Source: a virus
Taxonomy: Duplodnaviria > Caudoviricetes
Virus record (IMG/VR): IMGVR_UViG_3300021399_000102
Location: 137,558 to 201,557 of that record
Length of the DNA: 64,000 nucleotides
Direction: 5' to 3' (one strand)
Part shown: piece by piece, positions 48,739 through 55,659 of the stretch
How positions within the stretch are numbered: position 1 is the first letter of the stretch
How the letters are laid out: the number at the start of each line of letters is the position of its first letter
Program-made: the position numbers and the translations under genes
The notes under the pieces: generated by a model
Seen by the model: the letters and a program-made list of their open reading frames with translations, nothing else
What the model was told of the DNA's origin: nothing
Database searches by the model: none

Positions 48739-48815
48739 TGGGTTGTCTTGCTGGTTCTGCCCCAGCGATTTCCCCGTCCACAGCGGGGCGTCTTCACTAC
48801 TCGACCAAAGACAAC
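48739..48815 (-). tRNA. tRNA-His(GUG)
   Basis: CCCCG-ct GTG ga-CGGGG; G-1:C73; CCA. Confidence 0.85.
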
Positions 48816-53649: not shown

Positions 53650-53724
53650 TGGAGCTGACGGAAGAACTCGCATCTTCGTGTTCCGTCATACCAAGACGGC
53701 ACCTAACTTCTCAGTCACATCAGC
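53650..53724 (-). tRNA. tRNA-Thr(GGU)
   Basis: CCGTC-tt GGT at-GACGG. Confidence 0.85.
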
Positions 53725-54280: not shown

Positions 54281-54355
54281 TGGTACTCCGCGCGGGAGTC
54301 AAACCCGCAACCCAGGGTTTAAGAGACCCTTGCGCTATCATTGCGCCAGCGGAGC
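54281..54355 (-). tRNA. tRNA-Lys(CUU)
   Basis: AGGGT-ct CTT aa-ACCCT. Confidence 0.9.
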
Positions 54356-54362
54356 ATTGAAA

Positions 54363-55082
54363 TTATTCATCTATGAACTCTTTGGCAATCCGAATATACT
54401 TCTTTGGATTGTGGAATACATCTTTCCACTTGAGTCTCAACAATTGCCATCCTTCATCCTTTAAGAGTTCATTCTTTCTCAAATCCCTTTCTATTTGCTC
54501 TGGGAATATTTCGTGCTGCTTGCCATCAATCTCAATGCACTTCTTCTTGTGTTCCCAGGCAAAGTCCAACGAGAACCTATGAAACGGTCTTTCACGCACA
54601 TAGTTCTTGTCAGCAAATTCGTTCTCAATCACTTGCATGAACCACTTCTCGGGCCATGAAGGTTCATTGTTCCATCTGCACTCGCCAATGTTGTGCGCAC
54701 GGCCTTCTGCGTGAGCTTTCTTCATTGACTCAGAAATCTTCTTTCGCATTTCATCCGGGAGATGCTTTCCTTCCCAATGGAACTTTACCAATCCTTCTGA
54801 AATTCGTTGTTTAAGCGTTTCAACACCTTTGGCAATTCTTGGGTCTATGTCTTTCGTCAAACCCTTATTCCAACATCGTTTCGATTTGTGTGCTTCATGT
54901 TTGTGCTTATACATTAAGCTACGAGACTTAAATTCTTCGCCACATTGGTCGCATATCCAAGGTGTGCCTTTCTGGTGTTTTCGTTCGCAAGAGTGAGCAT
55001 ATGCTCCTCTACATTCCTTGGAGCAGAATCTTCCGCTTCCATACGAGCCATCATGCTCGTTTCCACATACTTCGCATTTCAT
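54363..55082 (-). CDS. free-standing endonuclease (Zn fingers, NUMOD3, DUF559/Vsr-like nuclease domain)
   Basis: MKCEVCG..GSGRFCS (same N-terminus as 45508..46266), GKHLPDEMRKKISES, LDFAW..IEIDGKQH..RDLRKNELLKDEGWQLLR. Confidence 0.82.
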   Translation of the reverse strand: MKCEVCGNEHDGSYGSGRFCSKECRGAYAHSCERKHQKGTPWICDQCGEEFKSRSLMYKHKHEAHKSKRCWNKGLTKDIDPRIAKGVETLKQRISEGLVKFHWEGKHLPDEMRKKISESMKKAHAEGRAHNIGECRWNNEPSWPEKWFMQVIENEFADKNYVRERPFHRFSLDFAWEHKKKCIEIDGKQHEIFPEQIERDLRKNELLKDEGWQLLRLKWKDVFHNPKKYIRIAKEFIDE

Positions 55083-55195
55083 AATTTTTGCCTTTAGTTT
55101 AGAGACGTTATTTACGGTAACGTCATCTCTATTTACAATTATACGAAAATTTGTCCCAGACCTATGTTGGCCGTAAACCATGATGGAATGGGACA
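55083..55195 (-). promoter_or_regulatory. kissing-loop leader motif, copy 3
   Basis: loop TTTACGG complementary to loop CCGTAAA; TATAAT-t-GTAAATA between. Confidence 0.7.
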
Positions 55196-55200
55196 TTAAG

Positions 55201-55478
55201 TGGCTGATGAGGAGGGACTCGAACCCCCAGTTGCTTTCGCCACGGATTACCTGCTACATTGGTTTCCCATTGTAGTCTGGACTATCTCATCATCCCATTT
55301 CTGGGAGCGTCCTCTATAGTCTCTACGCATTTACGCATTTCTGCGATTTAGTTCTGTGATTAGCATGTTGCATACGCAATTTAGCCTCTCCAGAGTTAGG
55401 GACGTGTTTCAATCAAGGTTGCCCTTGAAAGCTGCCATATAGGACAGTCCGCTGCCTTACCATTCGGCTCACTCATCA
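55201..55478 (-). tRNA. tRNA-Asn(GUU) interrupted by a group I intron (exons 55444-55478 and 55201-55249)
   Basis: spliced arm GCGGA-ct GT^T aa-TCCGT; U1-A72, G73, CCA. Confidence 0.88.
55250..55443 (-). ncRNA. group I intron (194 nt, no ORF)
   Basis: 5' exon ends in U paired to G in P1 (CTGT^C / GGCAG); R element GTAGAGACTATA, S element GATAGTCC (P7); terminal G. Confidence 0.88.
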
Positions 55479-55659
55479 TCAAATCGTTCTAAATTGACGT
55501 GTTGGGAAGGATTCGGACCTTCATAGGGCATTATGCTAACGAATGTTTCCATGCTTGGAAACCACCTCTCTAATGTCCAATCGGCGGCCTTTGCCGATGC
55601 ATAGCCCGTTCTATGCTGCTTCAACACACGAAACTTGTTTCAGCACTATTGAAATTCGC

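Follow-up and report, generated by a model that had tools for sequence, protein, structure and literature searches.

The locus at positions 55201–55478 raises the question of what interrupts the anticodon of a phage tRNA gene, which tRNA the two halves encode, and whether the gene can still work. The window (the whole stretch of DNA analysed, 64,000 nt) is the final 64 kb of a 201.6-kb IMG/VR virus record (G000), which has a CheckV completeness of about 48% and encodes phage-like proteins (DnaB helicase, HNH nucleases, methyltransferases and an endolysin-like domain); the phage genome is put at roughly 400 kb. An array of ~40 tRNA genes, to which the interrupted gene belongs, occupies the minus strand between 45.3 and 57.0 kb of the window. 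Sequence comparison and structural modelling indicate that the locus is very probably a working huge-phage tRNA-Asn(GUU) gene, split at positions 35/36 by a compact ORF-less group I ribozyme.

The split tRNA-Asn gene and its orthologues

The tRNA gene runs from 55478 to 55201 on the minus strand and consists of a 35-nt exon 1, a 194-nt intron and a 49-nt exon 2, the same coordinates and anatomy that an earlier note on this DNA had given. Exon 1 (55444–55478, minus strand; tRNA nucleotides 1–35) comprises the 5′ strand of the acceptor stem, the D arm, the 5′ strand of the anticodon stem and C32 U33 G34 U35, thus ending in CUGU, and is identical to the intron-less orthologues described below or changed from them by compensation. 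Exon 2 (55201–55249, minus strand) begins UAAUCC and contributes U36 A37 A38, the 3′ strand of the anticodon stem, a 13-nt variable arm, the T arm and the 3′ strand of the acceptor stem, ending in GCCA (G73 plus an encoded CCA). The default ARAGORN run missed the split gene; the joined exons were called as an 84-nt tRNA-Asn(gtt) with a cloverleaf, a 7-nt anticodon loop CUGUUAA, U33, a purine at 37, and G73 as discriminator directly before the encoded CCA. In E. coli, G73 is an identity element for AsnRS.

In three complete genomes of related huge phages (G002, G003 and G004), this unusual tRNA occurs without an interruption; all three share its anticodon arm and 13-nt variable arm, and G003 has the D arm in common as well. 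These intron-less copies are called tRNA-Asn by both ARAGORN and Rfam (56.6 bits for the G003 copy with the Rfam tRNA model), and all read CUGU followed directly by UAAUCC. The junction is therefore CUGU/UAA and the anticodon GUU (Asn) rather than GGU (Thr), so that alignment with uninterrupted alleles places the intron between anticodon positions 35 and 36, as the earlier note had proposed. The 13-nt variable arm, which has a GAAA loop, is identical in five huge-phage genomes, and still longer variable arms were seen in the tRNA-Asn of other huge phages (loci compared: window 55213–55241, minus strand; L238, L239, L240; L048, L118); the variable arm of class I tRNAs is normally 4–5 nt.

A second tRNA-Asn was not called anywhere in the whole 201-kb record, relaxed thresholds included, nor was another found in the fetched stretches of the array of G001 (see below), in keeping with the description of this gene as the only Asn tRNA of the array. 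Near 48788 there is a clean anticodon arm for His, and 48149–48076 holds an Asp-like GUC tRNA; ARAGORN missed both. Since the His and Asp arms are present and no other Asn tRNA is, the 20-amino-acid tRNA set of the array is plausibly complete only with the split tRNA-Asn; of the earlier proposal that splicing completes this set, the sole Asn gene thus stands and completeness itself is graded as plausible. Beside the tRNA-Asn gene, at 55495–55627, lies an RNA of ~130 nt that has a T arm and a stem resembling an acceptor stem, a region in which Rfam reported no group I match.

Scans with exact patterns recovered the split gene from G001, a complete genome of 418,068 bp that has terminal repeats and in which the pre-tRNA is 93% identical to that of G000; a 418,130-bp metagenome contig (L259) has a pre-tRNA identical to that of G001, and two further metagenome contigs (L252 and L260) belong to the same allele family. 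Related introns occur at the same position in L247, where a different phage-like array of tRNA genes holds an ordinary tRNA-Asn of 76 nt, and in L262, a Saccharibacteria MAG contig that carries Obg and glycosyltransferase genes and the tRNA-Asn of which is split after CUGU. In its intron mode ARAGORN also calls 'Gly i(36,96)' and 'Ser i(33,115)' in G001 (L237:158-334 and 2063-2266). The T loop of the G001 gene (L237:1509-1789) reads UCCGAGU and that of G000 UUCGAGU, the near-universal U55 being replaced by C in G001.

Two of these alleles are mosaics. L252:1488-1770 and L260:610-887 are reciprocal, each joining the 5′ exon of one allele to the 3′ exon of the other with the switch point inside the intron, and three acceptor-stem mismatches would result; they are either broken copies from real recombination or assembly chimeras. 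G29C occurs in one mosaic contig and C41G in the other, as if a third allele, consistent in itself, had been divided between them.

Intron structure and covariation

The intron (55250–55443, minus strand; 194 nt) contains no ORF of 40 or more amino acids, and its last base, at 55250, is the terminal (omega) G. On the Rfam alignment, a hand-built model and covariation the intron is assigned to group I. RF00028 aligns over the full length of the model (window 55256–55490) with P3, P4–P6, P8 and P9 in register and with E values of 2.6e-5 on 14.5 kb and 7.3e-7 on 411 nt, although the scores of 33.1 bits (G000) and 27.4 bits (G001) do not reach the gathering score of 50 bits; this was the Rfam comparison that the earlier note had suggested. 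The same-type intron of the Saccharibacteria MAG (L262) scores 71.1 bits. In Williams 2020 (bioRxiv 10.1101/2020.01.27.920355) the RF00028 seed sequences are described as non-bacterial; this depresses the scores that bacterial tRNA introns obtain. Pair-by-pair checking of the hand-built model found that every helix pairs, and the minimum-free-energy fold of the intron alone gives P2, P3, P4, P5, P5a, P6a, P8 and P9 (z = −2.45).

P1 (55432–55447, minus strand) would pair exon bases C32–U35 and intron C1 with the internal guide GGCAG (intron positions 8–12), with U35.G9 as the splice-site wobble and a 6-nt L1. All three lineages compared (the huge-phage allele family, L247 and L262) can form both the guide pairing and the U.G pair, with L1 differing by indels. 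RNAalifold proposed a different P1, in which intron C1/C2 pair with G9/G8 and U35 is unpaired; this form is impossible in L247 and L262 and was dropped, and the U35.G form is preferred because it can be made in all copies.

The remaining features (all on the minus strand) follow in group I order. P2 (55413–55428) has 6 bp, five of them with compensatory changes, and a GCAA tetraloop. The 5′ strand of P3 (55398–55404) pairs around a bulged A with the 3′ strand (55308–55315), which was placed by the hand model and by covariation; five of the seven P3 pairs covary and 100% of the cells are paired. The P4–P6 domain (55325–55394), recovered by covariation, the hand model and the minimum-free-energy fold, consists of P4, A-rich J4/5 (AGA) and J5/4 (AAU), P5, P5a, P6, and P6a with a GAAA loop. 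P5 of G000 holds an 11-nt-receptor-like motif in an isosteric A.C form, and the P5 internal loop of L260 is the canonical CUAAG/UAUG tetraloop receptor, which by analogy suggests an L9–P5 type of brace as in Azoarcus. Within this domain, an 8-nt unit AAAUGCGU occurs as two tandem copies (window 55325–55340), making up the 3′ strand of P6a and a stretch into P6 and J6/7; the duplication offers an alternative pairing partner for the 5′ strand of P6a.

The P7 5′ strand (55316–55323; G121, bulged A122 and G123–U128) is invariant in all six copies compared. P7 is formed by G121–C165, the bulged A122 and then GACUAU/AUAGUC, within which G123–C164 would, by analogy, be the guanosine-binding pair. P8 (55293–55306) is a 5-bp hairpin with a GAAA tetraloop, the 7-nt J8/7 and the 3′ strand of P7 (55279–55292) are supported by the Rfam alignment and the hand model, and P9 (55254–55275) has 9 bp with one A.A mismatch and a GAAA tetraloop. 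P10 is weak, with only two pairs. The features named in the earlier note, namely the lack of an ORF, the U.G pair in P1, the GACUAU/AUAGUC strands of P7 and the terminal G, are thus all present, and its group I assignment holds on all three counts, Rfam alignment, hand model and covariation.

Covariation was assessed on six copies from three lineages (G000, G001, L252 and L260; L247; L262). RNAalifold recovered the anticodon stem, P1, P2, P3, P4, P5, P5a, P6a, P8 and P9 from this set. Once P6 and P7 are included, pairing reaches 94.7% of cells, compared with 29–41% in slid-partner controls, and 26 of 57 pairs show double (compensatory) changes (2–7 in the controls), most of the signal coming from the two divergent sequences, as four of the six copies are closely related; none of 500 shuffles matched the observed covariation values. 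Between G000 and G001 the introns differ by six substitutions and one 3-nt loop indel, and four of the six substitutions make up two compensatory G–C to A–U swaps, in P2 and P3. The exons of the same pair differ by three swapped acceptor pairs and a T-stem G–C to C–G change, and such compensatory exon changes indicate that the gene is under selection as a tRNA.

Neighbouring nuclease gene and possible mobility of the intron

The free-standing endonuclease that the earlier note had placed next to the tRNA is encoded by the ORF at 54363–55082 (minus strand), the product of which has a cysteine-rich, zinc-finger-like N-terminus and a DUF559/Vsr-like nuclease domain (PF04480, 4.3e-10). Its leader (55083–55200) begins 1 nt past the tRNA-Asn. 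BLAST synteny showed that a segment at 54284–55193 (minus strand), holding the nuclease gene, its leader and a tRNA-Lys(CUU), is missing in G001; this segment is 910 bp long and bounded by copies of a UUUCAAUG-like spacer.

Intron and nuclease might together form a collaborative homing pair, in which the nuclease would cut the intron-less tRNA-Asn alleles of co-infecting phages, the intron would shield its own genome by splitting the target site, and repair would copy both elements in. The position of the leader is in line with this, as are the presence of a nuclease gene beside the tRNA in three of four intron-containing lineages (G000, L252 and L260) and the lack of any nuclease homologue within 1.5 kb of the three intron-less alleles (G002–G004). 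The intron is also better conserved between G000 and G001 (~97% identity) than the exons (~88%), although this fits either strong constraint or recent spread, and L252 and L260 resemble exon mosaics with crossovers inside the intron, although these may be assembly artefacts. On the other hand, the complete G001 genome keeps the intron and has neither the nuclease gene nor the tRNA-Lys(CUU) at this site, which makes collaborative homing optional at best. Moreover, the tRNA-adjoining nucleases differ, that of L252 lying in the same place with 63% amino acid identity and that of L260 being a different gene behind the same leader, with an N-terminal match only; similar nuclease cassettes occur elsewhere in the array, as expected of Seg-like elements with targets of their own; and G003 retains an identical, uninterrupted target sequence. 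We therefore consider the homing pair unlikely. The nuclease is a mobile cassette in its own right, SegB-like and variable, and the sequences suggest that cooperation with the intron, while possible, would not be required.

A broader proposal, that the intron is actively mobile among co-infecting huge phages with the aid of free-standing DUF559-type nucleases, variably present immediately 3′ of the tRNA, that the L252/L260 mosaics and the better conservation of the intron are footprints of homing, and that the intron type came to be shared through transfer between phages and CPR bacteria, seems to us more doubtful still. If it were true, the co-conversion tracts would end inside the intron, and the sharing of the type with Saccharibacteria would reflect phage–CPR transfer within the same habitat.

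Predicted splicing and splice register

By analogy with the standard group I pathway, we infer the catalytic steps and their timing as follows. The array transcript would fold so that C32–U35 pairs with the guide GGCAG, forming P1 with its U35.G wobble, and free guanosine bound at the P7 pair G123–C164 would attack after U35. The terminal G (55250) would then enter the same P7 pocket, and the 3′-OH of U35 would attack the 3′ splice site, joining the exons as CUGUUAA and freeing the 194-nt intron. P10 is weak, and the anticodon stem of the tRNA probably keeps the two exons together, a role it also plays for the tRNA-Leu intron of Anabaena. The tRNA predicted to result is 84 nt long, has G73 and an extra arm of 13 nt, and is the sole tRNA-Asn of the ~40-member array.

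Alternatively, the ribozyme could be inactive, the split gene being a pseudogene or in need of a protein or trans-acting factor, with a host tRNA reading the Asn codons. An RF00028 score below threshold, the weak P10, and the L252 and L260 alleles with their mismatched acceptor halves would be compatible with inactivity, but the core is intact (the U.G pair, the J4/5 adenines, the P7 pocket with its bulged A, J8/7 and omega-G) and the substitutions between G000 and G001 are compensatory in both intron and exons, which would not be expected of a decaying gene. The chance that the ribozyme is inactive thus appears small. The working gene remains our preferred reading, and under it we take the intron to be, most likely, a selfish passenger that splicing renders harmless; its type ('Asn position 4, U/G') is common in Saccharibacteria-class bacteria.

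The placement of the intron one base upstream, as reported by ARAGORN with introns allowed (the same 194-nt intron, labelled Thr(ggt), intron (35,194)), would yield a second tRNA-Thr(GGU) that folds as a cloverleaf too, but this register was dropped as scarcely credible, since it fails both the U/G rule (the base ahead of the 5′ splice site would be G rather than U, and the intron would end in A in L247 and U in L262 instead of G; only in the 35/36 register do all three lineages have U at −1 and G at omega) and the intron-less orthologues with their GUU anticodon, and since the discriminator is G73, as in tRNA-Asn, and a Thr(GGU) gene is already present at 53650–53724.

Comparison with known introns and distribution

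The background given in the earlier note, that bacterial tRNA group I introns are classically found in Leu, fMet, Ile and Arg tRNAs, agrees with Williams 2020 (bioRxiv 10.1101/2020.01.27.920355), where four classical bacterial types are widened to 21 intron-split tRNA types, many of them in unnamed metagenomic phyla and with phages outside its coverage. The note's further statement that phage introns lie mostly in protein genes is matched by Hausner 2014 (PMC3984707), which places every phage intron known at the time in a protein gene, although phages have many tRNA genes. A literature search for phage tRNA group I introns and for CPR tRNA-Asn introns found only Williams 2020.

The closest counterparts are the tRNA-Asn(GUU) 35/36 introns of Saccharibacteria/Patescibacteria, which under the naming rules of Williams 2020 (bioRxiv 10.1101/2020.01.27.920355) would be 'Asn.4Ug'. 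The phage intron is of this kind, lying after the fourth anticodon-loop base with U at −1 and G at omega, and it shares with the Saccharibacteria introns the tRNA, the insertion point and the guide GGCAG; compared with the MAG copy (L262), both strands of P7 and the core motifs beside them are identical. It differs in that its host is a ~400-kb phage and not a cell, its tRNA has the 13-nt extra arm, P5 has the 11-nt-receptor-like motif, and identity outside the core is low (~78% over 56 nt). The intron is thus of a known type in a new host.

In the class to which the L262 MAG belongs, 50 of 151 sampled genomes match the split tRNA-Asn of the MAG, and the CUGU-intron-UAA layout was seen in the fetched loci of at least 11 of the 151, with the query MAG additional; the earlier note's mention of Asn 35/36 introns in CPR bacteria is thereby confirmed, in the Saccharibacteria MAG as well as in those 11 or more genomes. 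The MAG itself (G005, ~0.7 Mb; L263-L270) has eight RF00028 matches, five of which lie where ARAGORN, with introns allowed, calls split tRNA genes, six in all. These calls are Met, Asp, two misregistered Thr(tgt), and Arg and Ser at one shared locus, one of the Thr(tgt) calls being the L262 tRNA-Asn gene. A large share of the tRNA set of G005 seems, from these calls, to depend on self-splicing.

The classical IC3 introns (Azoarcus tRNA-Ile(CAU), Anabaena and plastid tRNA-Leu(UAA), Synechocystis tRNA-fMet and Agrobacterium tRNA-Arg(CCU)) are likewise ~200-nt anticodon-loop introns with P1 formed from anticodon-loop bases, a P2, and no P5abc or P7.1/7.2. The phage intron has a P2, GNRA loops and the P5 receptor-like motif, which may point to IC3, and the GNRA loops on P2 and P9 together with that motif suggest, by analogy, an Azoarcus-like bracing. 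The phage intron differs from the IC3 introns in its tRNA, in its position (35/36 and not 34/35, 33/34 or 36/37) and with respect to the L2–P8 contact, as its P8 is a plain 5-bp hairpin without a receptor.

With the introns of phage protein genes (T4 td, nrdB and sunY, Twort, SPO1, and the Jug gut phages with ~18 introns per genome; PMC12880540) it has in common that it is phage-borne, small and of the self-splicing type, with free-standing homing-type nucleases nearby; unlike them, it interrupts a tRNA rather than an ORF. It is also the only RF00028 match in the complete 418-kb G001 genome, which leaves a Jug-type, intron-rich phage unsupported. The 'enigmatic' tRNA introns of Lak megaphages (Devoto 2019, PMC6784885) likewise lie in tRNA genes of huge gut-type phages, are highly conserved between genomes and have junctions fixed by intron-less alleles; those introns were not classified as group I, whereas the tRNA-Asn intron has a complete group I core. 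The adjoining nuclease resembles SegB, a free-standing GIY-YIG enzyme of the T4 tRNA cluster (PMC2330249), in lying between phage tRNA genes and varying in presence among relatives, but its fold is DUF559/Vsr-like PD-(D/E)xK. Free-standing nucleases that target intron insertion sites have been described for cyanophage psbA and T-even mobE (PMC2790892).

A BLAST search of the locus against cultured phage records (n=50,697) gave no match. In IMG/VR, a tighter core pattern found G001 as the only genome, and a looser one returned more than 113 unrelated phage introns, none of them close; the split tRNA-Asn intron is rare in IMG/VR. The 12 soil metagenome contigs from the same scan have an R/S core near-identical to that of the phage tRNA intron, and in L249 and L250 two introns of this core family are no more than ~250 nt apart, in host genes that look protein-coding. 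A different kind of interruption was seen at L041:4439-4902 (IMGVR_UViG_3300029858_000001), where the tRNA-Asn(GUU) of another phage, with intron-less orthologues in L008, L016 and L019, is split one base further on, at 36/37, by a 464-nt insert. Nearly all of this insert is a PDDEXK_5 ORF (PF11645, 3e-28), with 27 and 14 nt outside the ORF, and it was ruled out as a group I intron, having no Rfam group I match.

Significance

Standard tools miss or mislabel this gene, and the phage then looks as though it were without a tRNA-Asn; the correct reading completes a near-full tRNA set in a ~400-kb phage. The finding also bears on a gap in the literature: the 2014 review (PMC3984707) knew of no phage tRNA gene with a group I intron. 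The alleles described here constitute a natural test set, with intron and nuclease together in G000 and L252, the intron alone in G001, and intron-less genes in G002–G004, and this set suits tests of the cooperation between free-standing nucleases and ORF-less introns. Phage tRNA arrays are also home to an intron type that is typical of Saccharibacteria.
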